IMG/VR virus record: IMGVR_UViG_2627853844_000004
DNA: 16,995 nt
Origin: a virus
Lineage: Duplodnaviria > Heunggongvirae > Uroviricota > Caudoviricetes
Reading direction: 5' to 3' (one strand)
Position numbers and translations under genes: made by a program. A model generated the notes under the pieces. The model was not told the DNA's origin, did no database searches, and saw only the letters and a list, made by a program, of their open reading frames with translations. Below are positions 1 to 15,831 of this stretch, one piece after another. Every line of letters starts with the position of its first letter. The first letter of the stretch is position 1.

Positions 1-750
1 TCAGTCAATTGTTTTGTTTATTCCATCTGTGACGCCGATTATTTTCTCAAAATAATGAGATGGCGTGACACCATAATAATCTTTAAATGCACATATGAAA
101 TATGAAGTACTGTTATAGCCACATTTCTGGGCTACGACATTGATAGAATAAGAGTTTGAAGTTATGAGTTTTTTTGCATACCTCATCCTAGTATCTCTCA
201 ATATTTCAGTAAATGACGTTCCTTCATCCCTTAATCTTTTTTTTATTAAACTTTCACTCGTATAAATCAATTCCGCAATATCTTTTAAATGCCATTGCCG
301 CTCAATATTAAAACTGATTATTCCAGTAATTTTACAGGTAAATGTATTTATATTTGTTAGTATAAATGAATTTACACTTTCGCGTTTTTTGAACATGGCA
401 AGTAAGGATATACATAGTCTTTCTTTTAACCAAAGGGAGTGTGAGTCTGCTATTTTAATCCCTTCAAACAGAGAAAAAACAAGCGATAATGGAGGTTCCT
501 CTTCAGCAATATAGCCATTCTTATCAAGAGTAAATTTGCCAGGCAGCTCATTATTCACGTCGATAAAAAAGGATAAACATGTTTTCTTATCTATATCAAC
601 AATTCTTAGTTTAGAGGGGCATACTGGTAACTCCCTTCTAATTTTGTCGCTTACAATAAACAATGAATTTTTTTTGAACGAGATAACTCTCCTGTTTATA
701 ATTAAATCAAATGATTGACAGATGAAAACTACGGAGCAAACATAATCCAT
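1..750 (-). CDS. appY: AraC/XylS-family transcriptional activator, complete 249 aa
   Basis: Complete ORF with stop at 1-3. C-terminal half has the paired helix-turn-helix pattern of AraC regulators. N-terminus [16 protein letters not shown] and 249-aa length match my recollection of AppY. Position next to Tfa remnants at the prophage edge fits DLP12. Confidence 0.8.
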
Positions 751-1295
751 CTTGCACCTATCATAAAATTAAAACAAGTTGATAGTAGTCAAATAACAAC
801 CAATTAAATACACAATCATAATCAGGATGATGTGCATTTATATTTTTATACACAAAATTATAGTTTGCAAATTTTAATAAATTTCATTTAAGATTAAATT
901 ATTATATGTATGTTGTTTTTTATTCTAACTTATTTCAAAGTTACATTTTTCAACGCTTACTATGCTTTTTATTAACATAAACTCACTACAACGCACCTGA
1001 AACCTCTTGCTATATATATGTCAACCGTTTGAATTTAAAATAAAAAGAGTATCATTTTTACTTGCATTTCTTATCAAGTCACATTCAACAACAGTAAAAA
1101 AACATTATTAGAACCATTCAATTAACAAAAAACCAACATCCAGCTTGCTTAATTTTTCTTTATTAAACGATATTGAAAATCAATTGATAAAATACATCTA
1201 AACAACCTTTTGGGGCGCAAAAGCATAACATCAAACAAACAAATAACACACCGAAAAAACTCACAATTAATAACCTATGATATACATACTGTTTA
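751..1295 (-). promoter_or_regulatory. Long, very AT-rich 5' leader and promoter region of appY
   Basis: About 545 bp with no convincing ORF on either strand and strongly AT-biased composition by eye (runs of A/T, few G/C). Lies directly upstream of the appY start at 750. Confidence 0.45.
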
Positions 1296-1556
1296 TTATG
1301 GTTGAATAAGCCACTCGATATCTGGTGCTACGGAAGTGTCCACACGGTTTAGCAGCACCCGATACTTTTTTCAGGCTTCCAGCAACGATCTTTCTTCCTC
1401 CGTTGCGATTTCCAGATCTACAGCATCCTGCAGTGGCGCAATATACTCACTGAATTCCTGGATGTAGAACTGTGTGGTGACGGTCTTCCAGCCATTCGGC
1501 TCCTGCTGTATTGAAGCATACCAGGCTATTTCAATATCGCTATGCTGCGGCAGCAT
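1296..1556 (-). pseudogene. tfaX: Tail fibre assembly (Tfa) gene remnant with in-frame TGG->TGA nonsense codon
   Basis: 61-aa ORF (1371-1556) ends ...[23 protein letters not shown], the conserved Tfa C-terminal motif. The stop at 1371-1373 sits where the paralog at 2334-3077 has TGG (W). The frame continues past it as [24 protein letters not shown] to a second stop at 1296-1298. An AAGGGG Shine-Dalgarno precedes the ATG at 1556. Confidence 0.75.
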
Positions 1557-1694
1557 TTAACCCCTTGTAATTCATTGCCATAATTGATTTAATTCACAAA
1601 TAAAACTATAACATGGTGAAATTAATAAAAAAACACAGATGATGGGGCTAGAATTTACACACCACTTACCCTAAAGCTTTATGACTGGTGGGTT

Positions 1695-2279
1695 TTGGGA
1701 GTATCAAATCGGCTTGCATGGGGATGTCCTACAAAGGAACACCTTCTTCCACACTTTCTGGAACATTTAGGTAACAACCATCTGGATATTGGTGTTGGAA
1801 CTGGGTTTTACCTTACTCACGTACCTGAGAGTAGTCTGATATCTTTAATGGATTTGAACGAAGCTAGCCTGAACGCGGCATCTACAAGGGCTGGGGAATC
1901 AAAAATTAAACATAAAATTAGCCATGATGTTTTTGAACCTTATCCCGCGGCGTTACATGGTCAATTTGATTCCATTTCCATGTCTTACCTTCTTCACTGC
2001 CTGCCTGGAAATATATCTACAAAAAGCTGTGTAATACGCAATGCGGCGCAGGCCTTAACTGACGATGGAACTCTATACGGAGCCACAATTCTTGGCGATG
2101 GAGTTGTGCACAATAGCTTCGGTCAAAAACTGATGCGCATTTACAATCAGAAAGGCATCTTTTCAAACACAAAAGATTCCGAAGAAGGCTTAACACATAT
2201 ACTCTCAGAGCATTTCGAGAATGTTAAAACCAAGGTTCAAGGTACTGTAGTAATGTTTTCCGCTTCAGGAAAAAAATAG
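1695..2279 (+). CDS. ybcY: Class I SAM-dependent methyltransferase-like protein; start uncertain, possibly 5'-degraded
   Basis: Translation contains LDIGVGTGFYL, a methyltransferase motif I (glycine-rich SAM-binding loop). The frame is open back to 1629 with no in-frame ATG; the ORF track start at 1695 is TTG. An out-of-frame ATG ORF begins at 1681. Symbol is from recollection of the K-12 DLP12 gene order. Confidence 0.55.
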   Translation: MGVSNRLAWGCPTKEHLLPHFLEHLGNNHLDIGVGTGFYLTHVPESSLISLMDLNEASLNAASTRAGESKIKHKISHDVFEPYPAALHGQFDSISMSYLLHCLPGNISTKSCVIRNAAQALTDDGTLYGATILGDGVVHNSFGQKLMRIYNQKGIFSNTKDSEEGLTHILSEHFENVKTKVQGTVVMFSASGKK

Positions 2280-2333
2280 CATCCAACCGCAGCATGTTCT
2301 TGCTTAAGACGTGCTGCGGCATAATCCCAATGA

Positions 2334-3077
2334 TTACTCCCTGACAGGGTTCGTAGGCCACTCAATATCAGGTGCAGTTGATGTATCAACACGGTTCAGC
2401 AACACCCGATATTTTTTCCAGGCTTCCAGCAATGAGGTTTCTTCCTCCGTTGCGATTTCCAGATCTACAGCATCCTGAAGTGGCGCAATATGCTCACTGG
2501 CTACCTGCATCAGGCTGTTTTTTGTTTCTTCCGCCTCCCGAATCCGGAACAGTTTTTCTGCTTCTGCATCTTTCACCCAGGCTGTACCGTTCCACTTCTG
2601 AAACTCCCCTTCCGGCGATAACCAGGTAACATTTTCCGGTAACGGACCGAGTTCAGAAATAAATAACGCGTCCCCTGACGCTACGTCATAAACCGTTTTA
2701 CCCCGATGATCTTCAACGAGATGCCACGATGACTCATCACTGTTGAAAACAGCCACGAAGCCAGCTGGAATAAGGGTGTTGCGCTGCTTATGCTCTATAA
2801 AGTAGGCATAAACACCCAGCAGCATTTTGGAATAACCGACACGGGCAGACTTCACCACATTCACCTCACGGATGTAGTCGCTGCCCATCGCATTCATGAT
2901 GGCCCGCTGAAAGGGCAGTGTTTCCCAGCGCCCTTCCTGGTATGCGGATTCTTTCGGGAGATAGTAATTAGCATCCGCCCATTCAACGGCGGTCTGTGGC
3001 TCCGGCCTGAACAGTGAGCGAAGCCCGGCGCGGACAAAATGCCGCAGCCTGTTAACCTGACTGTTCGATATATTCAC
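2334..3077 (-). pseudogene. In-frame deletion fusion: terminase large subunit (gpA) N-terminal 103 codons joined to Tfa C-terminal ~144 codons
   Basis: Residues 1-103 ([28 protein letters not shown]...[14 protein letters not shown]) match the lambda gpA N-terminus as I recall it. From residue 104 ([29 protein letters not shown]...[14 protein letters not shown]) it matches the lambda Tfa C-terminus. Junction lies between 2768 and 2769 (minus-strand ...cttatt|ccagctgg...). Corresponds to the K-12 aaaD/tfaD pseudogene pair by recollection. Confidence 0.85.
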
Positions 3078-3502
3078 TCAGCAACCCCGGTATCAGTTCA
3101 TCCAGCGCGGCTGCTTTGTTCATGGCTTTGATGATATCCCGTTTCAGGAAATCAACATGTCGGTTTTCCAGTTCCGGAAAACGCCGCTGCACCGACAGGG
3201 GGATCCCGTCGAGAATACTGGCAATTTCACCTGCGATCCGCGACAGCACGAAAGTACAGAATGCGGTTTCCACCACTTCAGCGGAGTCTCTGGCATTTTT
3301 CAGCTCCTGTGCATCGGCCTGCGCACGCGTAAGTCGATGGCGTTCGTACTCAATAGTCCCTGGCTGGAGATCTGTCTCGCTGGCCTGCAGCAGTTCTTCA
3401 ACCTCCCGGCGCAGCTTTTCGTTCTCAATTTCAGCATCCCTTTCGGCGGTGATGCTGCCAACTTACTGATTTAGTGTATGATGGTGTTTTTGAGGTGCTC
3501 CA

Positions 3503-3778
3503 GTGGCTTCTGTTTCTATCAGCTGTCCCTCCTGTTCAGCTACTGACGGGGTGGTGCGTAACGGCAAAAGCACCGCCGGACATCAGCGCTATCTCTGCTC
3601 TCACTGCCGTAAAACATGGCAACTGCAGTTCACTTACACCGCTTCTCAACCCGGTACGCACCAGAAAATCATTGATATGGCCATGAATGGCGTTGGATGC
3701 CGGGCAACAGCCCGCATTATGGGCGTTGGCCTCAACACGATTTTACGTCACTTAAAAAACTCAGGCCGCAGTCGGTAA
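3503..3778 (+). CDS. insA: IS1 InsA (transposition repressor)
   Basis: 91-aa [43 protein letters not shown]... with zinc-finger-like N-terminus typical of InsA. Confidence 0.95.
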
Positions 3779-4200
3779 CCTCGCGCATACAGCCGGGCAG
3801 TGACGTCATCGTCTGCGCGGAAATGGACGAACAGTGGGGCTATGTCGGGGCTAAATCGCGCCAGCGCTGGCTGTTTTACGCGTATGACAGTCTCCGGAAG
3901 ACGGTTGTTGCGCACGTATTCGGTGAACGCACTATGGCGACGCTGGGGCGTCTTATGAGCCTGCTGTCACCCTTTGACGTGGTGATATGGATGACGGATG
4001 GCTGGCCGCTGTATGAATCCCGCCTGAAGGGAAAGCTGCACGTAATCAGCAAGCGATATACGCAGCGAATTGAGCGGCATAACCTGAATCTGAGGCAGCA
4101 CCTGGCACGGCTGGGACGGAAGTCGCTGTCGTTCTCAAAATCGGTGGAGCTGCATGACAAAGTCATCGGGCATTATCTGAACATAAAACACTATCAATAA
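3697..4200 (+). CDS. insB: IS1 InsB frame (expressed as InsAB' transposase by -1 frameshift)
   Basis: 167-aa ORF in the -1 frame relative to insA. An A6C slippery run (aaaaaac, 3754-3760) lies in the overlap, which is the known IS1 frameshift motif. Confidence 0.9.
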
Positions 4201-4374
4201 GTTGGAGTCATTACCCCTTTCGGCATACCATTTTATGACGGCGGCAGAGTCATAAAGCACCTCATTACCCTTGCCACCGCCTCGCAGAACGGGCATTCCC
4301 TGTTCCTGCCAGTTCTGAATGGTACGGATACTCGCACCGAAAATGTCAGCCAGCTGCTTTTTGTTGACTTCCAT

Positions 4375-4610
4375 TGCACATTCCACGGACAAAAACAGAG
4401 AAAGGAAACGACAGAGGCCAAAAAGCTCGCTTTCAGCACCTGTCGTTTCCTTTCTTTTCAGGGGGTATTTTAAATAAATACATTAAGTTACGACGAAGAA
4501 GAACGGAAACACCTTAAACCGGAAAATTTTCATAAATAGCGAAAACCCGCGAGGTCGCCGCCCCGTAACCTGTCGGATCGCCGGAAAGGACCCACAAAAT
4601 GATAATAATT
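4375..4610 (-). other. Lambda-type cos site (cosQ-cosN-cosB); 12-nt cohesive-end sequence at 4552-4563
   Basis: Minus strand reads ...cgatccgacaggttacg GGGCGGCGACCT cgcgggttttcgctatttatgaaaattttccgg..., matching the lambda right-end/left-end junction and cohesive end as recalled. The region between cosN and the Nu1 start (cosB) is near-identical to lambda. Confidence 0.85.
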
Positions 4611-4762
4611 ATCATCTACATGTCACAACGTGCATCTACGCCATCAAACCACGTCAAATAATCAATTATGACGCAGGTATCGTATTAATTGATCTGCATC
4701 AACTTAACGTAAAAACAACTTCAGACAATACAAATCAGCGACACTGAATACGGGGCAACCTC

Positions 4763-4957
4763 ATGTCAACTAAGAACAGAACCCGCAGAACAACAACCCG
4801 CAACATCCGCTTTCCTAACCAAATGATTGAACAAATTAACATCGCTCTTGAGCAAAAAGGGTCCGGGAATTTCTCAGCCTGGGTCATTGAAGCCTGCCGT
4901 CGGAGGCTAACGTCAGAAAAGAGAGCATATACATCAATTAAAAGTGATGAAGAATGA
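4763..4957 (+). CDS. ylcI: Small prophage protein, 64 aa
   Basis: ORF MSTKNRTRRTTTRNIRFPNQMIEQINIALEQKGSGNFSAWVIEACRRRL... Length and position between the terminase gene and ybcW fit K-12 ylcI by recollection. Function unknown. Confidence 0.55.
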   Translation: MSTKNRTRRTTTRNIRFPNQMIEQINIALEQKGSGNFSAWVIEACRRRLTSEKRAYTSIKSDEE

Positions 4958-5121
4958 ACATCCCGCGTTCTTCCCTCCGAACAGGACGATATTGTAAATT
5001 CACTTAATTACGAGGGCATTGCAGTAATTGAGTTGCAGTTTTACCACTTTCCTGACAGTGACAGACTGCGTGTTGGCTCTGTCACAGGTTAAGTAGTTTG
5101 AATGATTAGCAGTTATGGTGA

Positions 5122-5328
5122 TCAGTCAACCACCAGGGAATAATCCTTCATATTATTATCGTGCTTCACCAACGCTGCCTCAATTGCCCTGAATGCTTCC
5201 AGAGACACCTTATGTTCTATACATGCAATTACAACATCAGGGTAACTCATAGAAATGGTGCTATTAAGCATATTTTTTACACGAATCAGATCCACGGAGG
5301 GATCATCAGCAGATTGTTCTTTATTCAT
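5122..5328 (-). CDS. ybcW: Small prophage protein, 68 aa
   Basis: 68-aa ORF with GGAG Shine-Dalgarno 8-9 nt upstream of the ATG at 5328. Length and neighbourhood fit K-12 ybcW by recollection. Confidence 0.6.
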
Positions 5329-5613
5329 TTTGTCGCTCCATGCGCTTGCTCTTCATCTAGCGGTTAAAATATTACTTCAAATCTTTCTGTATGAAGGTTT
5401 GAGCACGTTGGCCTTACATACATCTGTCGGTTGTATTTCCCTCCAGAATGCCAGCAGGACCGCACTTTGTTACGCAACCAATACTATTAATTGAAAACAT
5501 TCCTAATATTTGACATAAATCATCAACAAAACACAAAGAGGTCAGACCAGATTGAAGCGATAAAAACGATAATGCAAACTACGCGCCCTCGTATCACATG
5601 GAAGGTTTTACCA

Positions 5614-6024
5614 ATGGCTCAGGTTGCCATTTTTAAAGAAATATTCGATCAAGTGCGAAAAGATTTAAACTGTGAATTGTTTTATTCTGAACTAAAACGT
5701 CACAATGTCTCACATTATATTTACTATCTAGCCACAGATAATATTCACATTGTGTTAGAAAACGATAACACCGTGTTAATAAAAGGACTTAAAAAGGTTG
5801 TAAATGTTAAATTCTCAAGAAATACGCATCTTATAGAAACGTCCTATGATAGGTTGAAATCAAGAGAAATCACATTTCAGCAATACAGGGAAAATCTTGC
5901 TAAAGCAGGAGTTTTCCGATGGATTACAAATATCCACGAACATAAAAGATATTACTATACCTTTGATAATTCATTACTATTTACTGAGAGCATTCAGAAC
6001 ACTACACAAATCTTTCCACGCTAA
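5614..6024 (+). CDS. ybcV: Uncharacterised prophage protein, 136 aa (DUF1398 family by recollection)
   Basis: ORF track gives 177 aa from 5491. The ATG at 5614 ([11 protein letters not shown]...) has a GGAAGG Shine-Dalgarno about 9 nt upstream and gives 136 aa, the length I recall for YbcV. Stop codon taa at 6022-6024 abuts IS5. Confidence 0.65.
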
Positions 6025-7219
<1,195 letters not shown>

Positions 7220-7221
7220 CT

Positions 7222-7281
7222 AAAGCACTCGGTGTAAGCACTGATGACATCGTTGCTGTAGGTCTGGTTTACCAGTTCTAA
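7222..7281 (+). pseudogene. nmpC: 3'-terminal remnant (19 codons) of an outer-membrane porin gene
   Basis: Frame reads KALGVSTDDIVAVGLVYQF* directly after the IS5 right end. The ...VGLVYQF C-terminus is the conserved final beta-strand of OmpC/OmpF/NmpC-type porins. No porin body is present anywhere in the window. Confidence 0.75.
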
Positions 7282-7419
7282 TCTGATTACGAAAAAGATA
7301 TGTTGCGGGAGGCGTTGCCTCCCCAACATATAAGTGGCTCCCTCAAGCCACTTCCTTTAGAAGCACAACCTTGCTTCTAACTATATAAACCTTCTGTTAT
7401 ATATTACCCTTTATTTTTG

Positions 7420-7454
7420 GGGGCGTCTCAACGCCCCATTTTTAATAATTTTTA
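7420..7454 (+). terminator. Rho-independent terminator for the plus strand (porin gene 3' end)
   Basis: GGGGCGT (7420-7426), loop ctca, ACGCCCC (7431-7437), then atttttaataattttt. On the minus strand the hairpin is followed by an A-rich stretch, so it is not a minus-strand terminator. Confidence 0.6.
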
Positions 7455-7470
7455 GTAAACAATTGGCATA

Positions 7471-7854
7471 TTAATTAGAGTTATTAACAACGATATCCAT
7501 CTCTAACCGGATATCTAATGCCATTAACATCCCTTCAATTATGCCCTCAGCCTTCTGTAACCTTTTCCCGATATAACCATCAGAGCAGCAATGCTTACCT
7601 GCCAGTGACATGAATGTCATACCGACTACATAATAATCTACTAATAAATCGTGCAAATCGCTGTTGTTCTTTTTCAGACGGGCCATGCACCCGCAAATGA
7701 TCATCGCGTCATCGTCACAACATTGCGGGCGAGATTTTACTTTTGAAGTAATTAATCCCTTAAAACCGGCGGCAATGGACGACCAGGTCACATCTTCATG
7801 ATTATTAGCCGCCCACGCTCCCCAACGCTCAAGAACCATCTGAATATCACGCAT
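7471..7854 (-). CDS. quuD: Late-gene antiterminator Q (phage 82 type), 127 aa
   Basis: [29 protein letters not shown]...[18 protein letters not shown]... with a cysteine-rich zinc-binding segment. Length and position downstream of rusA/ylcG match K-12 QuuD by recollection. The ORF track start at 7869 is 5 codons further upstream. Confidence 0.75.
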
Positions 7855-7921
7855 CAACTTACTCCACAAAAATCAGACCAGAACGCCAATTACAAGCAAA
7901 AATCAACAAAACAGTATTAGT

Positions 7922-8062
7922 TGATTGTTATCTCTGACTTCATACTCCTGCTCCTGTCAGGGTTTTGGCGTAATTCTTCAGTATTCGGTAATCGGTCAAA
8001 ACAGAACCGGGGAAACGATATAAGCGCAGACGCCCCCAGCGGTGGCGAAGAAGTTCTGCCAT
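7922..8062 (-). CDS. ylcG: Small protein, 46 aa
   Basis: Hand translation of the minus strand from ATG at 8062 gives MAELLRHRWGRLRLYRFPGSVLTDYRILKNYAKTLTGAGV...*, 46 codons, starting 14 nt after the rusA stop. Below the ORF-track length cutoff. Symbol from recollection of a 46-aa gene between rusA and quuD. Confidence 0.5.
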
Positions 8063-8076
8063 ATTAAACTCAAACA

Positions 8077-8439
8077 TCATTCATTCCCCATTTCGGTGAT
8101 GGTCAGTTCCAGCCTCCCACCTTTGGTAACAGGCATCTTCACAACGCGGTAATCAACGACCTGAGCATCATCCAGCCAGAAACCTGCTTTAGTGAGTGCG
8201 TCAAAAGCGGCTTTTTGCAGATTATCCAGGTCACGGCGACGGCGATCCGGCATGTGGCACTCAATGCGGATTTTCACAGGCATAGCCAGGCCGATATCCA
8301 GCATTGCGTTTTTAATGATTCGGGCGACGTTATCGCGGTATGCCTGCCCCTCTGCGCTGACGTGCGTGCGCCCGCGATTATGGCGGTAATAGCGATTATT
8401 GCTCGGAGGCCAGGGTAATGTGATGCTGTAGGTATTCAC
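8077..8439 (-). CDS. rusA: Holliday junction resolvase RusA, 120 aa
   Basis: [54 protein letters not shown]...TITEMGNE matches RusA as recalled. Confidence 0.9.
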
Positions 8440-8726
8440 GCCTTAATAACCCCCTCTTTCAGCCAGATAACCTGTGTTCTCGCCATACCTTCCAGCGCGC
8501 ATTCTTTTGCATATCCAGCGTCAACAAAATGCGTGCGGCGGTCGATTTCGTCGTGGCAGGCAGAACATGCAATGGTGGCAATCAGGTCTGGCGGTTTCGT
8601 ACCGGTGCCGCACAATCCAGTCAGCCGGATATGTGCCAGTACAGACGTTTCAGGGTTGCCATTACATACGCCAGGGATTCTTACCTGGCATTCCCGACCA
8701 CGCGCTGCTTTTCTCAAATCAGCCAT
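8436..8726 (-). CDS. ybcO: Nin-region protein, 96 aa (DUF1364 family by recollection)
   Basis: ORF from [42 protein letters not shown]... Its stop overlaps the rusA start by 4 nt, suggesting translational coupling. The ORF track start at 8765 is 13 codons upstream. Confidence 0.7.
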
Positions 8727-8889
8727 GACTCCTCCTTGCTGCCAGTCGCAACCATTTTTTATCAACCAAGCTGGCGGTATATCCGAGCAGTGTTGGTATT
8801 TCGGATGGCTTCAGCTCAGGTTTACGCTTACGACGATTTGGTACTCTGTAGATGTGTCCGTTCATGACACGAATAAGCGGTGTAGCCAT
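8719..8889 (-). CDS. ninE: NinE-family protein, 56 aa
   Basis: Minus-strand ATG at 8889 preceded by [38 protein letters not shown]... The start shares one nucleotide with the ybcN stop (TAATG). Confidence 0.7.
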   Translation of the reverse strand: MATPLIRVMNGHIYRVPNRRKRKPELKPSEIPTLLGYTASLVDKKWLRLAARRSHG

Positions 8890-9344
8890 TACGCCTCCTG
8901 CTTGTCGCGCAGCAGCTGGAACTCGCAGCTCTGTGGAATAGTCAGGTGGCAACCAATATTCATCGCCCAGGCTTCAACCTTACACAGGAAGACATACATC
9001 TCTCCGGTATCAAGATCGGAGGTATGGCGTAACGACTGGATAGTGGTGATATCACCGGTTACGACATCAACCAGGTCTTTGGTTTCATAACCGAGATATG
9101 TGTGTTTGAGAGCATCTTTTACCCAAGCTGGAGTGGCGAACGTTTTACCCCTGCTGATGAGGTATTCACTGATTTCGCTGTACCACATGTGGCTGAGTGC
9201 ATTCTGGGAAAGACTGCGTTTCTCACGCCACGGTTTAAGCACCATGCGAAAGCATTTGCCCTCCTCCAGATAAGGCTGGATCTGCCGACCGATAGCGGTG
9301 AAGTTGCCGCGATGTAATTTGATGCCGTCTTGTGAGAGGTTCAC
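8889..9344 (-). CDS. ybcN: NinB-family recombination protein, 151 aa
   Basis: [58 protein letters not shown]... with GTG start at 9344 preceded by GGAGGGG. Position between ren/cargo and ninE matches lambda ninB. Confidence 0.75.
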
Positions 9345-9442
9345 GCTTCCCCTCCGCAGAGGTCAAACGCTAGATGCAAAGAATTGCAGGTGCATTTCTG
9401 CATCTGTGAAGGGAGAAGAGAGTTTGGATTGTATGTGCGCAT
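9341..9442 (-). CDS. ylcH: Small protein, 33 aa
   Basis: Hand translation from ATG at 9442 gives [38 protein letters not shown] Shine-Dalgarno about 5 nt upstream. Stop overlaps the ybcN GTG start (GTGA). Symbol from recollection of a 33-aa gene at this position. Confidence 0.45.
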
Positions 9443-9558
9443 AAACGTCCCCGTTTAGCGCAGAAGTCACCGGAGTTGTTCAGGCTCCGGTGACATAATT
9501 ATGCCGTGTTGATTTCCCAAAATCAAAATCGATAGAATTGCTCCTTCTTAAAACACTT

Positions 9559-10356
9559 TTACTCTCTGGAAGCTTTTCTTATCTCTCTTGGTGTTATATT
9601 AAAACGATTATGAAATCTTTCAGTAAAACGAGAAGGACACTTATAACCATTTTCTCTGGCAATCTCGCTTATAGGTTTTACCGTCGTTTGTATAGCAGAC
9701 AACGCATTATTTAACCTCACATCGTCCAGTATACTTTGGAAACTTACCCCCTCGCTTGCTAGACGGCGATGTAATGTAGAAACAGAAATGTAGAGATATC
9801 GAGCAACCTTGTTTGCTGTCCATTTTGTGCCGGGTTCGGATAGCAGCAGGTTATAACAACGACTTATCAATGATTGTTTACTATATGATAAAAGTAAATG
9901 ATTAACATGATTCACTCCTAACGAAAGTAGAACGCCCATTGCTAAGTGCTCCTGAATTTTAGTTGAGAAGCCTCGGGAAACAGATGTTTTTAGTTGCTCC
10001 CAACAATATATTAACTCAGGATTCTGAGGTAAAAAGAAACTTGTTTTGTTACGTATTTGATCAGTTACCGTATAAAGTTTTTGGAAACTCTCAATTAAAT
10101 CAATGGGTAAGTAAAGCATTTCTGCAAGATAAAGCCCTGCTTCAGGATAATTCTCAATATAAAATTCATAACCACAAGGAAATAATATTATTTGATTATT
10201 ATCAACAGTTAAAGTATGCGTCTCCCAATTGATAACTTTCTTTCCCTGACGGATACGACACAAAGCTGGCATAAGAGGCTTAACCCTATGAATCTCATGA
10301 TGTTTATGCATCCGTATTTCTTCGATCTTTAAGTTAGTCTTACCTCTTGCCAGCAT
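9559..10356 (-). CDS. ybcM: AraC-family transcriptional regulator, 265 aa
   Basis: C-terminal region ...[44 protein letters not shown]...[32 protein letters not shown] is a typical AraC helix-turn-helix pair. Visibly AT-rich codon usage. Confidence 0.8.
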
Positions 10357-10365
10357 ACTCTCACC

Positions 10366-10917
10366 CTACTTTATCTCATAAACTGGTGTTATCTCAGCGG
10401 TTGCGATTTTATTAGCATTAAGCATATAACCAACTAACGCTCCGCTGGAGTTAGAATCTACAGGAATCTTTTCAGTTTTTAGAGCCCATACTTTAAACTG
10501 GTAATGATGTGGTTTATCTCCTTTAGGAGGACATGCGCCACCAAACCCAGCATAGCCAAAATCATTTCGGCCTTGAACAGCACCAGTCGGCAGTTTTGTT
10601 CCATCACGTCTCCCTGCATCAACGGGCAAATATGTTACTGTTGCTGGAATATTAACAACAGTCCAATGCCACCAACCACTGCCTGTAGGTGCATCTGGAT
10701 CATATACAGTTACGGCAAAGCTTTTGGTACCTTCAGGAACACCAGACCAGGTTAATGAGGGCGATGTATTACCACCTTCACACCCAAATCCAGAAAAGAC
10801 ATGAGACGTTGTAAGTTGCTCTCCTGTTTTTATTTCATTACTAGTGACCTGAAATGCTGCAGCCTGCGCAGAAAATGTTATGAATGCCAATACAGTTGAA
10901 ACGATAAGTGTTTTCAT
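10366..10917 (-). CDS. ybcL: Secreted PEBP/RKIP-family protein, 183 aa
   Basis: N-terminal signal peptide MKTLIVSTVLAFITFSAQAAA. Mature region contains the PEBP-like ...YDPDAPTGSGWWHW... motif. AAGAGG Shine-Dalgarno 6 nt upstream of the ATG at 10917. Confidence 0.8.
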   Translation of the reverse strand: MKTLIVSTVLAFITFSAQAAAFQVTSNEIKTGEQLTTSHVFSGFGCEGGNTSPSLTWSGVPEGTKSFAVTVYDPDAPTGSGWWHWTVVNIPATVTYLPVDAGRRDGTKLPTGAVQGRNDFGYAGFGGACPPKGDKPHHYQFKVWALKTEKIPVDSNSSGALVGYMLNANKIATAEITPVYEIK

Positions 10918-11091
10918 AAAAACCTCTTTGTTATGACCTATCGTTATTTTATTTGATATTCCTTTATCTCATTATGCATAAAGGCGCAATGTTCATGCAA
11001 AAGCAATCACAATTGTACCCCCAACCCAATTATTTGCCACAATATACACAAAGCACATTGATACTATCTAAAAACTCTGCTTTATTATTAG

Positions 11092-11123
11092 TAACACCTA
11101 CGAAAGTCGGTGTTATTTTTTAA
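11092..11123 (+). terminator. Candidate rho-independent terminator on the plus strand
   Basis: taacacc (11092-11098), 10-nt loop, ggtgtta (11109-11115), followed by tttttt. No annotated plus-strand gene lies upstream; see findings. Confidence 0.4.
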
Positions 11124-11381
11124 CCTACCATTCAAAATACGTGACATACACCATTTTGCTCATAATAATTTGTCACGTATTTTCAGTATTTGAATCTGCG
11201 ACCAAGAGTTCTCACCTAACAAATGATTAAGATTGTATAGCTCATTTACTACCCCAATACAGCCGTACAAAACTCGCTTGTGGGAGCAAACAAAGTAATT
11301 ACCCATTAAGTTTCGTCAAAGATAATTAATTCTGTCTTGCACTTTATCACCATAGCATAACTTAAAATCCGAGATCATTAT

Positions 11382-12908
11382 TTAGAAATAAATCTCACCA
11401 TCAACCATATATTTGAGAGCACTTATCGCCTGCTGGGCGGATATTACTTTCATTAAAGGATAGTGTTTAAAAACAATGCCATTCATAAAATAGATATCAC
11501 AGGTTTTATTATCCGTATTAATTATGATTTTTTCGAATGTTTTATAGGCAAGTGTACGGCATAACTCTCGTCCATTTTTACTGGTTAAGTCAATAGCATA
11601 AAAATCACTGAATGAATTTACACCTTTACTCTTCAAAGTTTTCAATGATACCGAAGCCCTTCGTAATTCCTTATCTAATAGTCTTATTTTCTCTGCTATA
11701 GCGGTAACTTCAGGCGCGACAGACAATGCAACGATTAAATTATTAATTTTCATCTGAAGCTCAATAATTTTTAACTCTAAAGTTTCATTAGCATCTTTCT
11801 TGTTTTCAACTGGTTGAATTTTGCTACAATTAAAAAGCAATTCATTAATGATATTATAATCAACCAAATCTCTTTTTATTGATGGCCTGTCACATCGATG
11901 TAATCTTCTCATCGGACAAACATAATAGCCATGCAAACTTCCAGATACCGCATGAACAATCATGGTATTACCACAAGCCTCACACTTCATAACTGTTCGA
12001 AGTAGATTTATTAGCATAGGATTCTTGCTACTATTGCTAATACCAAAAGGTGCCAACCGAATTTCCTGTACAGCGTAAAACAAATCATCTGATATGACTC
12101 TGGGATAATAGCCAGCGATTTCACTTATCCCTTTCCCTCTTGCACGATATGAAGGTACGCAAATACCTATCAGAGCTTTATTCGCTAATAATTTTTCAAT
12201 TACAGAAGGTCCCCATGCACTTTCTTTTCCTGAGAAATTCTTTACAGCATGATCATTTAAATACTTGGCTATTGCATTCAATGAGCGCCTTTCCATCCTG
12301 AGTTTAAAAATTAGCTCAATAGTTTTCACCCTGTCGGGGTCTGGAACAAAAGCCGTTCTTTTGTCATCTAAGGAGAGCCATCTCGGACAAGACGCCGTCA
12401 TAATCGTACCTGATTCCAGTGCATCCTGCCGTTTTTTCTTCCATGATAATTTAACCCGACTTGACTTTATCTCGCTTTCTTCATTTGCCCTTTGTGCTAT
12501 AAGTATGGCTTTTATTAATGAATATGGCTCATTCAAAGAGTCAATATTATAGACTGTATTGTCGCAAAGAGTTATAACATCAATACCGTGATTCAAAATC
12601 AATTTCAGACGTTCAATCGCTTCACCGACTTTTTCTCTTGAAAGTCTGTCCAGACTTTCAACTAACAATGTAGTTCCTGGCAATATATAACCATGCTCTA
12701 TAGCATCTAAAAATTCCGAAAAAGCTCCTGATTGTGCATGCTTTCCTTTGAATGCACTTAATCCTAAATCTTCATATGTTATGGTATCAAGATAATAATC
12801 ACTATTTACCTTTAACCATTCAGCAATAAGTCTTCTCTGTCGGTTTAATGAGTCGCCAGACATCTGACCTGGTGATGAAAATCGCATATATGCTATGGCT
12901 TTTTTCAT
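11382..12908 (-). CDS. ybcK: Large serine recombinase, 508 aa
   Basis: N-terminus MKKAIAYMRFSSPGQ... carries the catalytic-serine motif context of resolvase/invertase-type recombinases, and the protein has the long C-terminal extension of large serine recombinases. Very AT-rich gene. Confidence 0.8.
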   Translation of the reverse strand: MKKAIAYMRFSSPGQMSGDSLNRQRRLIAEWLKVNSDYYLDTITYEDLGLSAFKGKHAQSGAFSEFLDAIEHGYILPGTTLLVESLDRLSREKVGEAIERLKLILNHGIDVITLCDNTVYNIDSLNEPYSLIKAILIAQRANEESEIKSSRVKLSWKKKRQDALESGTIMTASCPRWLSLDDKRTAFVPDPDRVKTIELIFKLRMERRSLNAIAKYLNDHAVKNFSGKESAWGPSVIEKLLANKALIGICVPSYRARGKGISEIAGYYPRVISDDLFYAVQEIRLAPFGISNSSKNPMLINLLRTVMKCEACGNTMIVHAVSGSLHGYYVCPMRRLHRCDRPSIKRDLVDYNIINELLFNCSKIQPVENKKDANETLELKIIELQMKINNLIVALSVAPEVTAIAEKIRLLDKELRRASVSLKTLKSKGVNSFSDFYAIDLTSKNGRELCRTLAYKTFEKIIINTDNKTCDIYFMNGIVFKHYPLMKVISAQQAISALKYMVDGEIYF

Positions 12909-13090
12909 GGTGACACCTGCTAACGTATGCTTTTATAAACCTTAGTGGTGGGATATAATTTTTGTTTATTTTTTATTTAAAAAGACAATTAAGGTCACAT
13001 TATCTTGAATATACAACAATAATCGTATTGCAATTTTCTTACGCCATAATCTTGAAAGCACAAAAGAATACATAAAAAATAAAGACATTA

Positions 13091-13132
13091 ACAAAAAGCA
13101 TAAAACGAGGCTCATATAAATATAAGAGCCTC
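13091..13132 (-). terminator. Rho-independent terminator of emrE
   Basis: gaggctc (13107-13113) and gagcctc (13126-13132) form a 7-bp stem. On the minus strand it is followed by gttttatgctttttgt. Lies about 30 nt downstream of the emrE stop. Confidence 0.6.
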
Positions 13133-13162
13133 CATATTTTAGTCGTTTAGAAACAAATTATT

Positions 13163-13495
13163 TTAATGTGGTGTGCTTCGTGACAATAAATTAATAATCA
13201 ACACACCGGCACAAATCAACATCATGCCTATAATGGCTGGCAGGTCCAGCCGTTGGCCGAAAAATCCCCATGACAGTAAGCTAATCAGGACAATACCGAC
13301 TCCTGACCAGATAGCATAAGCAATCCCTGTAGGAATATAAGCCAGCGTCTGAGCTAATAACCAGAATGATGCACAATAACAAATAATTGTACCAACAGAT
13401 GGCCATAACCGTGTAAAACCTTCTGAAAACTTCATTAAGGTTGTACCAATGACCTCTGCAAGTATTGCACCACCAAGATAAATATAAGGGTTCAT
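13163..13495 (-). CDS. emrE: Small multidrug resistance (SMR) efflux transporter, 110 aa
   Basis: From the ATG at 13495: MNPYIYLGGAILAEVIGTTLMKFSEGFTRLWPSVGTIICYCASFWLLAQTLAYIPTGIAYAIWSGVGIVLISLLSWGFFGQRLDLPAIIGMMLICAGVLIINLLSRSTPH, four hydrophobic helices, matching EmrE as recalled. The ORF track extends 18 codons upstream. Confidence 0.9.
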   Translation of the reverse strand: MNPYIYLGGAILAEVIGTTLMKFSEGFTRLWPSVGTIICYCASFWLLAQTLAYIPTGIAYAIWSGVGIVLISLLSWGFFGQRLDLPAIIGMMLICAGVLIINLLSRSTPH

Positions 13496-13805
13496 AGCAT
13501 ATTCTTTCCTGTTCAAACTGGAGAGAATTGTACTACAGTTTGAACTCAACTCACCTGTTTCATCATTGTGTTCCCATTGATGTTCTTTTATATACCCTCA
13601 ATACCCGTTTCATCGCGGCACTCTGGCGACACTCCTTAAAAATCAGATTCGTGCTCACCTTTCCTTCCCATTCTTCTCTGGTAGCGAACCGGTAATACAC
13701 CGTTCGCCAGACCTTACCATCAACGACCAGGATTCCTGCCCGCGCCATTTTAGCCGCAGCCTGATTTATGCTGGTTGATCCTACCCACGTAATATGGACA
13801 CAGGC

Positions 13806-14672
13806 CTAAGCGAGGTTCTTGTTTTCAAATTGTTCCGGACTGAGGCCGCCACACCAACTGTGCCGCCGCCACCGATTGTAATCACATTCGATATAATTAA
13901 ACACCGTTGCCCGCATTATTTCCCGGCTGATAAAGTGTTCTCCATGGATACATTCCACTTTCAGCGAATGAAAGAAGCTTTCCACGCAGGCATTATCGTA
14001 GCAGCAACCTTTTGCGCTCATACTTCCACGCAGATTATGCCGCTTCAGTTGCGCCTGATAATCTGCTGAACAGTACTGGCCTCCACGGTCCGTGTGAACG
14101 ATAACGTTCCGGGGCCTCTTACGCCGCCACAGCGCCATCTGCAGGGCATCGCAGGCCAGTTGCGCCGTCATGCGTGGCGACATTGACCAGCCAATAACGG
14201 CACGTGACCACAGGTCAATGACCACTGCCAGATACAGCCAGCCTTCATCTGTACGTAAGTACGTGATGTCTCCTGCCCACTTCTGGTTCGGGCCACTGGC
14301 GTAAAAATCCTGCTCCAACAGATTTTCTGACACAGGCAGGCCGTGTGCGCGGTAGCTGACCGGGCTGAACTTCCGGGAGGCCTTTGCCCTCAGTCCCTGA
14401 CGGCGCAGGCTTGCCGCCACGGTTTTTACGTTAAAGGGGTAACCCTGAGCACGCAGTTCATCCGTCAGGCGTGGGGCACCGTAACGCTGTTTTGACCGGG
14501 TAAAAGCCGCGAGGACAACGCTGTCGCAGTGTTGGCGGAACTGCTGACGCGTGCTTATCCTTGTCCGCCGCTGACACCACGTATACCAGCCGCTGCGGGC
14601 CACCCGGAGCACGCGGCACATTGCTTTGATGCTGAACTCAGCCTGATGTTTTTCAATAAAGACATACTTCAT
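13806..14672 (-). CDS. insF: IS3 OrfB (DDE transposase catalytic domain; expressed as OrfAB by -1 frameshift)
   Basis: 288-aa ORF overlapping orfA by 4 nt. Contains the integrase-core pattern ...[33 protein letters not shown]... Confidence 0.95.
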
Positions 14673-14977
14673 TTCAGGCGCTTCGCGAAGTATGTCGCGG
14701 CCTTTTGGAGGATAGCCAGCTCTTCATCCCGTTCTGCCAGCTGGCGTTTGAGACGTGCAATCTCGGTAGACATCTCCAGTTCACGTTCAGAAGACGTCTG
14801 CTGATTTTGCTGTTTACTGCGCCAGTTGTAGAGTTGTGATTCATACAGGCTGAGTTCACGGGCTGCGGCAGTAACACCGATGCGTTCAGCAAGCTTCAGG
14901 GCTTCACTGCGAAATTCAGGCGAATGCTGTTTACGGGGTTTTTTACTGGTTGATACTGTTTTTGTCATGTGAGTCAC
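14669..14977 (-). CDS. insE: IS3 OrfA (helix-turn-helix transposase N-terminal protein)
   Basis: 102-aa [63 protein letters not shown]... with leucine-zipper-like C-terminus. Confidence 0.95.
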
Positions 14978-15122
14978 CTCTGACTGAGAGTTTACTCACT
15001 TAGCCGCGTGTCCACTATTGCTGGGTAAGATCAGATTACGGTTGCGCCTGTTACCGCGGCAACGTCCTGTGCACAGAAGCTCTTATGCGTCCCCAGGTAA
15101 TGAATAATTGCCTCTTTGCCCG

Positions 15123-15433
15123 TCATACACTTGCTCCTTTCAGTCCGAACTTAGCTTTAATTTCTGCGATCTTCGCCAGAGCCTGTGCACGATTTAGAGG
15201 TCTACCGCCCATAACAGGAAGTTGTTTTACTGGTTCAGGTATCGTCTCACCACGGTTAATTCGCGCTGTCATACAGGTCAGTTCATCGGCAGCCTTGCGC
15301 CGTAATTCCGCGTCAGCCAGCGCATTGGCCCGCATGTTCTGGTACAAGTTGGTAACCAACCAGTAATGCGCGTTCGATTTCCACGGATAAGACTCTGCAT
15401 CCGGATACAGGCCACGCTTCCGGCAATACTCGT
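15123..15433 (-). pseudogene. peaD: C-terminal remnant (~103 codons) of a lambda P-type replication protein
   Basis: Minus-strand frame reads ...[105 protein letters not shown], matching the lambda P C-terminus as recalled. No N-terminal part and no O gene are present. Confidence 0.8.
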
Positions 15434-15712
15434 ACCTCCCGGGATTTCATGAAATTCCGGCTCGGTGGTTTCGAGGCAATAAAATCGGCTTACATGGCCC
15501 AGGTGCAGTACAGCATGTGGGTGACGCGAAAAGATGCCTGGTACTTTGCCAACTATGACCCGCGCATGAAGCGTGAAGGCCTGCATTATGTCGTGATTGA
15601 GCGGAATGAAAAGTACATGGCGAGTTTTGACGAGATGGTGCCGGAGTTCATCGAAAAAATGGACGAGGCACTGGCTGAAATTGGTTTTGTATTTGGGGAG
15701 CAATGGCGATGA
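15434..15712 (+). pseudogene. exoD: C-terminal remnant (~92 codons) of lambda-type exonuclease Exo
   Basis: Plus-strand frame ...[92 protein letters not shown] matches the lambda Exo C-terminus as recalled. Homology begins abruptly near 15434. Confidence 0.8.
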
Positions 15713-15831
15713 CGCATCCTCACGATAATATCCGGGTACCTCACAACACGGCAAGCCTGCATTGCGGCGCTTCAGTCTCCGCTGCATACTGTCCAGGTGA
15801 GCGCGGGTGATGGCATAACAGAGGAAAGAAA

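Follow-up and report, generated by a model that had tools for sequence, protein, structure and literature searches.

The window analysed here is a stretch of 16,995 nucleotides catalogued as tailed-phage DNA (IMG/VR record IMGVR_UViG_2627853844_000004). It corresponds to the DLP12 cryptic prophage of an Escherichia coli K-12 laboratory lineage in reverse orientation, and its positions 8800–14800 are 100% identical to E. coli K-12-type chromosomes. On this identical stretch, the RefSeq gene order is quuD, ylcG, rusA, ybcO, ninE, ybcN, ylcH (33 codons), ybcM, ybcL, ybcK, ylcJ, emrE, ren (split by an IS3 element), remnants of P and exo, and intD. The subject of this report is the AT-rich block between ren and ylcH, which contains ybcK, the gene for a large serine recombinase (LSR). 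All genes of the block are on the minus strand, giving the reading order ren, emrE, ylcJ, ybcK, ybcL, ybcM. A preliminary description of this DNA had presented the block as four genes led by the recombinase. Those four genes are present at the positions it gave, while a fifth, ylcJ, had been missed; it is emrE that comes first on the minus strand, with ybcK in the middle.

Three modules can be distinguished. The first (about 13150–13599) contains emrE (13163–13495, minus strand), coding for an SMR multidrug efflux pump (Pfam PF00893; NCBIfam EmrE model, 239.7 bits against a cut-off of 226). The second contains ylcJ (12966–13115, minus strand), which encodes a hydrophobic small protein of 49 amino acids (Pfam PF23688; RefSeq annotation) and travels with ybcK, and ybcK itself (11382–12908, minus strand), encoding an LSR of 508 amino acids with Resolvase, Recombinase and Zn_ribbon_recom domains (PF00239, PF07508 and PF13408). 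The third is formed by ybcL (10366–10917, minus strand), for a PEBP/Raf-kinase-inhibitor-like protein with a signal peptide (PF01161; NCBIfam 400.3 bits against 277), and ybcM (9559–10356, minus strand), for an AraC-family regulator (Pfam HTH_18, 61.5 against a cut-off of 33.6, and HTH_AraC). The identities proposed earlier, an AraC regulator, a PEBP protein, the SMR pump EmrE and a 508-residue serine recombinase, are confirmed by Pfam and NCBIfam. In several relatives, ylcJ is frameshifted.

The block lies, as had been described, between ren and nin-type genes: the nin-side flank is made up of ylcH-ybcN, ninE, ybcO and rusA, of which YbcN is NinB-like, with a score below the Pfam cut-off. The GC fraction of the block (9528–13599) is 0.363, against 0.479 (7240–9527), 0.514 (13600–13776) and 0.518 (15036–15800) in the flanks. 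The GC content at third codon positions (GC3) is 0.26–0.35 in the five block genes and 0.44–0.60 in the flanking genes, which for this comparison were quuD through ylcH, two stretches of ren and P remnants, and intD. The block is thus more AT-rich than its flanks, as claimed, and has the distinct base composition of a moron, the term used for accessory phage genes. An Rfam scan of positions 8500–14000 found no RNA family, and no block protein matched a PADLOC defence model.

Compared with related phages, the variable DNA runs from about 9528 to about 13599, limits slightly wider than those of the genes (9559–13495). At the ren end of the slot, emrE-type phages cease to be homologous to those with other cargo 36 bp short of the ren stop codon; the C-terminus of Ren differs by cargo type. 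The ren 3' fragment of the window (13563–13776, minus strand; RefSeq annotation) is cut by IS3 at 13777, and its last 12 or so codons (13563 to about 13599) are variable cargo, not conserved backbone. The IS3 element (13777–15035), inserted in ren, is outside the cargo block and forms its boundary in this strain. At the opposite end is the nin-side joint (9466–9527, minus strand), located upstream of ylcH/ybcN and containing a sigma-70-like promoter (TTGATT, 17 nucleotides, CATAAT; 9526 to 9498) and a hairpin with a 10-bp stem (9466–9494; z-score of −4.0 against shuffled sequences). At least eight unrelated cargo ends meet the first base of this conserved stretch. Such exact reuse of the 9527/9528 joint might be taken for a recombination site. 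Within 9466–9527, however, at least eight phage variants have the promoter hexamers, the hairpin and an internal AATCAA in common, and the bases between them are scrambled; the sharpness of the joint is therefore better explained by functional constraint, and a recombination site was rejected. The phage 82 record X92588 likewise has a putative −35, −10 and regulator site annotated at these elements. Their conservation suggests a regulated promoter or a short leader RNA. TTGATT and the internal AATCAA form a dyad, and the stretch matches no Rfam family.

Downstream of emrE, every variant departs about 13–29 bp past the stop codon. A terminator-like hairpin is located here (13107–13132, minus strand), with GAGGCUC and GAGCCUC arms followed by a U-rich tract; its z-score is −2.8 and none of 200 shuffled sequences folds as well. 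The start codon of ylcJ is inside the 3' arm of this hairpin, and the first ylcJ codons are its U-tract. Between ren and emrE, a 13-nucleotide inverted repeat (GTTCAAACTGGAG / CTACAGTTTGAAC, 13511–13545) is kept in both the phage-type and the fliE-locus copies described below, and folds no better than shuffled sequences (z-score of −0.8). The ybcK gene is followed by a spacer specific to the K-12 type (11073–11340), with an open reading frame of 48 codons (11160–11306) and a perfect hairpin with a 13-bp stem (11134–11183; z-score of −2.7) followed by a U-tract. Terminator-like hairpins therefore stand after emrE as well as after ybcK.

YbcK matches the Resolvase family PF00239 with an E-value of 5.5e-19, contains the motif YMRFSSPGQ, and falls in the integrase family phrog_95 of PHROGs (4e-120). 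Residues R9, S11, D87, R88 and R91 of the catalytic domain are invariant among 24 family members that are 41–97% identical. A phmmer search of the PDB with the YbcK sequence gave no match, and the match of the sequence to a family profile has an E-value of only 6e-6. In the AlphaFold2 (AF2) model (mean pLDDT of 79), a long helix is predicted for residues 128–166, zinc-ribbon strands for residues 307–330 and paired helices for residues 373–427. Foldseek aligns this model over its full length with the integrases of SPbeta, Bxb1 and PhiC31 (E-values of 1e-17 to 1e-13, about 530 columns, 14–19% sequence identity). Beyond the coiled coil, residues 444–507 form a confidently modelled, beta-rich carboxy-terminal domain. 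A separate PHROGs family, phrog_2371, covers residues 348–508. All seven ybcK alleles compared are intact, and the ratio of non-synonymous to synonymous substitution rates (dN/dS) is 0.06–0.16. As judged from its sequence and predicted structure, YbcK is a complete integrase-type LSR under strong purifying selection.

In the literature naming ybcK, no assay of YbcK recombinase activity was found. Deletion of ybcK had no effect on excision of an unrelated island (PMC5426353), a Rho/NusG-dependent terminator is located in the ybcK leader, with Rho keeping ybcK expression low (PMC4150792), ybcK DNA is an Hfq-polyphosphate binding site (PMC10954037) and over-expression of ybcK increases sabinene tolerance (PMC7181518). 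Its neighbour emrE has been called a moron of prophage Perceval that is induced in Dulbecco's modified Eagle's medium (PMC9928086).

The ybcK gene is present in 1428 of 5426 complete E. coli genomes, adjoining emrE in every match listed, with a median of one and at most two copies per genome, and also occurs in the lambdoid phages Perceval, 4A7, Turner, D2 and the PhiR series (97.6–100% protein identity). In Perceval, PhiR34_1 and Turner the order is P, ren, emrE, (ylcJ), ybcK, cargo and ybcN/ninB. Both ybcK phages whose integrase end was inspected, Perceval and the O157 prophage at icd, have their own tyrosine integrase and excisionase; together with intD in the window, this bears out the earlier statement that YbcK is not the prophage integrase.

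What follows ybcK varies widely. The DNA that separates ybcK from ybcN was compared in 80 ybcK-bearing IMG/VR contigs plus references; it comes in about ten length classes, of which the K-12 type with ybcL-ybcM accounts for 28 of the 80 contigs. The other classes include several types that start with a "P22AR C-terminal domain" gene and continue with different genes, an alpha/beta hydrolase type and a cargo-free type. Altogether, emrE and ybcK are combined with at least seven fillings other than ybcL-ybcM; in the O157 prophage they have nothing downstream. Starting at base +125 past ybcK, the "P22AR" gene can be aligned colinearly with a rha-like gene of recombinase-free phages, over the 3' half of the latter. 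In these non-K-12 phages, it corresponds to the carboxy-terminal half of an intact Rha-like gene, with a new ATG at the joint (comparison locus L014, 4623–5231, compared with L104, L006 and L002). The ybcK genes of K-12 and Turner differ by a synonymous divergence of just 0.012, yet diverge from the last codons onward, which shows crossover exchange inside ybcK.

Other closely related phages share ren and the ybcN operon and have neither emrE nor ybcK in the slot between them. PhiR30_1 carries an acyltransferase and a lipoprotein gene here, PhiR26_1 the defence gene PD-lambda-1, a Rha-like gene and a hypothetical gene, and PhiR5_1 and IdasGreatGrand further gene sets without a recombinase. The slot is equally variable in these four phages, so its variability is independent of the presence of a recombinase. 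Presence or absence at the same map position among close phages, a mark of morons, is thus observed. Since related phages lack the block or have other cargo, its separate acquisition, as had been proposed, is supported. Scoring was possible on 77 sufficiently long phage contigs with emrE: in four of them (L255, L259, L262 and L265), ren, emrE, the hydrolase gene and ybcN are present without ybcK, and a fifth without ybcK is L269.

The K-12 filling without its recombinase is also known from a second chromosomal locus. Between yedK and fliE, a decayed prophage contains a porin gene, ybcM, ybcL and emrE, without ybcK, and the contiguous emrE-ybcL arrangement is found in 2629 of the 5426 genomes. 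In EC8, the one genome in which the context was inspected (L003, 6624–10143), emrE-ybcL-ybcM is located, together with the porin gene and a small piece of quuD, in a decayed DLP12-like prophage flanked by yedK and fliE; emrE of this copy has diverged by about 8–10% from that of K-12. The same emrE-ybcL-ybcM arrangement without ybcK is present in phage contig L269, which retains P and ren. Relative to the fliE-locus copy, positions 11073–13155 of the window form a clean indel of 2083 bp, comprising ylcJ, ybcK and a 309-bp tail, and this segment is absent from L269 as well. As an empty site for insertion of ybcK, the fliE-locus copy was set aside: it is about 10% divergent and has four extra bases, which blurs the junction, so that insertion and deletion cannot be distinguished. 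As emrE, ylcJ-ybcK and ybcL-ybcM each occur without the others, the block is not one element.

Footprints of site-specific recombination were searched for at the edges of the block and of the indel. Positions 9300–13800, covering the block edges, yielded short direct and inverted pairs at chance level and nothing resembling an attachment (att) site, and the indel edges at 11073 and 13155 have no att-type repeats and no terminal dyad symmetry. Comparison with relatives lacking the block, put forward in the preliminary description as a way to find its boundaries and any direct repeats at the edges, thus delivered the boundaries (about 9528 and about 13599) but not the repeats. Sites used by LSRs may share only 2 bp, and sequence alone therefore cannot exclude att sites at the edges of block or indel. 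Integrated islands are present or absent as whole units, with constant ends and a terminal recombinase next to an att site. The block is not organised in this way; ybcK is about 690 bp from one end of the slot and 1.85 kb from the other.

The most suggestive repeat was found in Perceval. Here, a 2073-bp segment with ylcJ, ybcK and a truncated rha is bracketed by imperfect 38-bp direct repeats of the emrE 3' end (L004, 6737–6774 and 8810–8847), which are identical at 31 of 38 positions and share an identical 15-bp core. In L255, which is 96–97% identical and without ybcK, one hybrid copy is present (4325–4362). This arrangement, which Campbell-type integration of a small circle would produce, was considered as an att signature, but the identities of the flanks favour a single unequal crossover involving one parent of the emrE-ybcK type and one of the emrE-hydrolase type. 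For P and ren, Perceval is 96.2% and 98.4% identical to the O157 prophage and 95.2% and 98.0% to GD31, against 94.2% and 93.4% to L255. On the hydrolase/ybcN side, it is 96.4–98.6% identical to hydrolase-type phages, against 93.6–95.0% to full-length ybcK-type matches, and of these two groups only the hydrolase-type phages had the hydrolase. Given the different parentage of the flanks, the 38-bp repeat is treated as a by-product of mosaic recombination.

Homologues of YbcK with 40–61% identity are found in Atlantibacter, Yersinia, Pantoea, Erwinia, Ewingella, Kluyvera and Citrobacter. Some are in the nin-type region between the replication genes and Q, in Atlantibacter-type and Pantoea lambdoid prophages, the Pantoea one having a tyrosine integrase. 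Others come last in the prophage, behind the tail-fibre assembly genes at its end (Atlantibacter, Ewingella and Yersinia), and plasmids of Duffyella and Pantoea carry solitary copies flanked by metabolic genes. One Atlantibacter homologue (59% identity; L009, 10001–12432) is the terminal gene of a prophage whose baseplate module is Mu-like; the 3' end of ssrA (tmRNA) lies 540 bp away, and such a prophage-end position next to ssrA normally holds an integrase.

In five pairs of loci from other Enterobacterales, the shared DNA is limited to the LSR gene with 18–223 bp upstream and 0–400 bp downstream, and the flanks are unrelated. The Duffyella plasmid copy is a unit of 1.76 kb (−150 to +78 bp) at the breakpoint between two plasmid segments, for which no matching empty site was found in PLSDB. 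The ends of these cassettes coincide with operator or promoter starts and with stop codons, and neither a common end motif nor terminal dyad symmetry was found among them. This tight single-gene pattern is compatible with a favoured single-gene moron spread by mosaic exchange; a self-mobile recombinase gene would also produce it.

Three candidate insertion footprints in this wider family were rejected. In Pantoea locus L035, the recombinase seemed to interrupt gene P; the flanking P-like pieces cover overlapping P residues, and hence represent two gene copies. In an Atlantibacter-type lambdoid prophage (L098), the recombinase, a KGG gene and dinI lie between direct repeats of about 200 bp (9652–9853 and 12625–12828, 79% identical), which are the 5' end of a DUF1367 nin gene and are read as a footprint of homologous exchange rather than an att site. 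A few kb upstream, the same early-right region of this prophage contains a SIR2 gene. Finally, a 21-nucleotide motif next to a Pantoea recombinase and at plasmid breakpoints was recognised as one half of a REP-like double-hairpin repeat that is dispersed in Erwiniaceae DNA and absent from the window. This repeat (GTCCGCT and AGCGGAC arms, twice, about 70 bp) occurs in Erwiniaceae chromosomes and plasmids, at breakpoints between plasmid segments (L025, L026, L028, L029, L189 and L190).

Taken together, the interval is probably an accessory (moron) slot of DLP12/phage-82-type lambdoid phages, filled by three separately exchanged AT-rich modules through ordinary mosaicism, and YbcK is not its maker. 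The slot extends from ren to the promoter in front of the ylcH-ybcN(ninB-like)-ninE-rusA-Q operon. Its K-12 filling consists of emrE with its own terminator-like hairpin, ylcJ-ybcK and ybcL-ybcM, all read with the early-right operon. Such fillings would be shuffled by homologous crossovers in conserved flanks (ren, emrE, ybcK and the ylcH promoter), with occasional unequal or illegitimate joins adding to the shuffling and no dedicated integration event being needed; the Perceval arrangement is best read as one such unequal crossover. The low GC content would then be a mark of foreign origin. YbcK itself would be an intact, selected single-gene passenger, phage integration in the two phages inspected being the likely task of their tyrosine integrases. 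We infer that YbcK retains site-specific recombination catalysis, most likely for an auxiliary integration, excision or rearrangement function.

Several observations weigh against this interpretation. The status of YbcK as a passenger is drawn from its context. In two comparisons, the ybcK segment stands out as an indel with sharp ends, and its homologues are tight single-gene units, as would be expected for a self-mobile recombinase gene. Autonomous transcription of the modules is not reflected in promoter content, a consensus scan giving 17 sites against 15.2 ± 3.8 in shuffled sequence. The linkage of emrE and ybcK is constant in every contig measured, which means that the modules do not reassort freely on short time scales.

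The preliminary description had offered two roles for the recombinase: that it inserted the block as one element, or that it now acts on nearby sites. For the former, the whole four-gene block would be a single mobile element integrated by YbcK, with attL and attR at its edges. The compositionally uniform and foreign character of the block and the complete LSR inside it speak for this model, but the block is never found as a unit, its parts occurring in all the combinations tested. Its ends are generic slot ends that recombinase-free cargo also uses, att-like repeats are lacking and ybcK is internal; the model is largely refuted, and we give it almost no credence. A local switch, with YbcK inverting or deleting nearby DNA like the small Pin and Gin invertases, would agree with its membership of the serine recombinase family and with the position of some homologues directly after tail-fibre assembly genes, the classical place of an invertase. 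Against this, the spacing from emrE to ybcK is 244–257 bp in all 150 IMG/VR contigs in which it could be measured, none of them with an inverted arrangement, and every ybcK genome match listed is colinear. No convincing pair of flanking inverted repeats is present, and the architecture is that of an integrase-type LSR, not of an invertase of about 190 amino acids. A switch is very unlikely, and the comparison of these contigs gives no sign that the recombinase acts on nearby sites.

A further possibility is that ybcK is the surviving integrase of a decayed second temperate element, once integrated beside emrE. Homologues with 50–60% identity are indeed the last gene of prophages (in Atlantibacter by ssrA, and at prophage ends in Ewingella and Yersinia), and the junction on the emrE side is constant while the downstream side is variable. 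But deposited phage isolates carry an intact ybcK with a dN/dS below 0.16, homologues also occur in the nin region of Pantoea (with its own tyrosine integrase) and Atlantibacter prophages, and the downstream DNA is normal slot cargo, colinear with other phages, instead of phage remains, all of which makes this origin very improbable. The remaining alternative is that only the ybcK cassette is mobile, as a minimal element resembling an insertion sequence (recombinase plus short ends) that inserts into phage accessory regions and plasmids, ybcK having entered downstream of emrE. The five Enterobacterales locus pairs that share the LSR gene and short ends only, the solitary copies on Duffyella and Pantoea plasmids, the clean 2083-bp indel relative to the emrE-ybcL arrangement, and purifying selection with invariant catalytic residues all agree with it. 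So do the 38-bp Perceval repeats with their 15-bp core and the single copy in the empty phage, which look Campbell-like. Some LSRs have been reported with common cores of about 12–16 bp. Weighing against a mobile cassette, there is no shared end motif or terminal dyad, and the ends are at promoter or operator starts and stop codons, like those of ordinary morons. The Perceval flanks are of different parentage and better fit a single unequal crossover, the Perceval segment also carries a rha fragment, and the empty fliE-type site has four extra bases and about 10% divergence. Finally, a single E. coli context is found across roughly 1400 genomes with a near-full-length match. We regard a mobile ybcK cassette as unlikely. 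Equally unlikely is its generalisation, in which YbcK and its 40–60%-identical relatives would form an undescribed class of single-gene LSR mobile elements, about 1.6–2.1 kb in size, moving between temperate-phage slots and plasmids of Enterobacterales.

The preferred reading, a moron slot filled by ordinary mosaicism, can be compared with known systems. Lambdoid morons and variable genes of the ren-to-nin region include lambda ren/ninA, 933W stk, and lambda bor and lom. Like these, the K-12 block is AT-rich, situated between conserved phage genes, variable among relatives, read with the flanking operon and provided with terminator-like hairpins, and its functions are host-directed (an efflux pump, a secreted PEBP protein and a regulator); unlike them, one of its passengers is a full-length site-specific recombinase. 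The slot from ren to ybcN also resembles the hotspots of P2 and P4 (PMC9122126, PMC9519451) in its fixed position, conserved flanks and many alternative cargoes. One of the alternatives in the slot is the defence gene PD-lambda-1 (in PhiR26_1), and SIR2 is present in the equivalent region of an Atlantibacter-type prophage; the K-12 block proteins are without a PADLOC model match. A description of this slot as a hotspot was not found in the two papers searched for it.

The predicted domain order of YbcK (catalytic domain, long alpha-E helix, recombinase domain, and zinc ribbon with coiled coil) is that of SPbeta SprA/YokA, Bxb1 gp35 and PhiC31 Int, and the catalytic serine and arginine residues are kept. 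YbcK differs from these integrases in being only 14–19% identical to them and in having the extra carboxy-terminal beta domain (444–507). Unlike phage large serine integrases in general, ybcK is not at a prophage end or beside a recognisable attP, no candidate directionality factor was seen and its host phage comes with a tyrosine Int and Xis of its own. Serine-recombinase transposable elements are represented by the IS607 family, TnpX (Tn4451) and TndX (Tn5397). By analogy, their movement without long terminal inverted repeats would resemble the single-gene cassettes of the YbcK relatives, but no conserved end dinucleotide or motif, circular form or multi-copy distribution was found for the YbcK family.

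The region is therefore already known as an annotated moron cluster in a hypervariable lambdoid slot, subject to ordinary phage mosaicism, and our finding, which re-describes annotated genes of the best-studied bacterial genome, changes little. What the module map of the ren-to-ybcN slot adds is the phage-borne nature of emrE, which encodes a model multidrug transporter, and of ybcL-ybcM, cargo that also persists in about half of E. coli genomes in the decayed prophage by fliE. It raises the question of the role and substrate of a complete, strongly conserved LSR that is kept as an internal passenger in phages which, where checked, have their own integrase. Should YbcK prove to recombine a defined site, E. 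coli itself would provide a new candidate recombinase tool, perhaps along with a new type of small mobile element.

The remainder of the window shows further features of this strain. Three insertion sequences are present within 17 kb of prophage: IS1 (3448–4215, transposase 3503–4200) splits the packaging gene nohD, within 5614–7220 IS5 (transposase 6093–7073) directly adjoins ybcV, and IS3 interrupts ren. The nmpC remnant and the lysis cassette essD-rrrD-rzpD-borD are deleted, and are present in other K-12-type records (comparison locus L185). At least 80% of the length of positions 1–7300 is matched in only 188 genomes, including ER3413, ER2796 and a number of MG1655 records. Another very AT-rich stretch (1–1400, GC fraction of 0.23–0.32) contains appY (1–750, minus strand), which encodes an AraC-family regulator at the end of the prophage opposite to ybcM.

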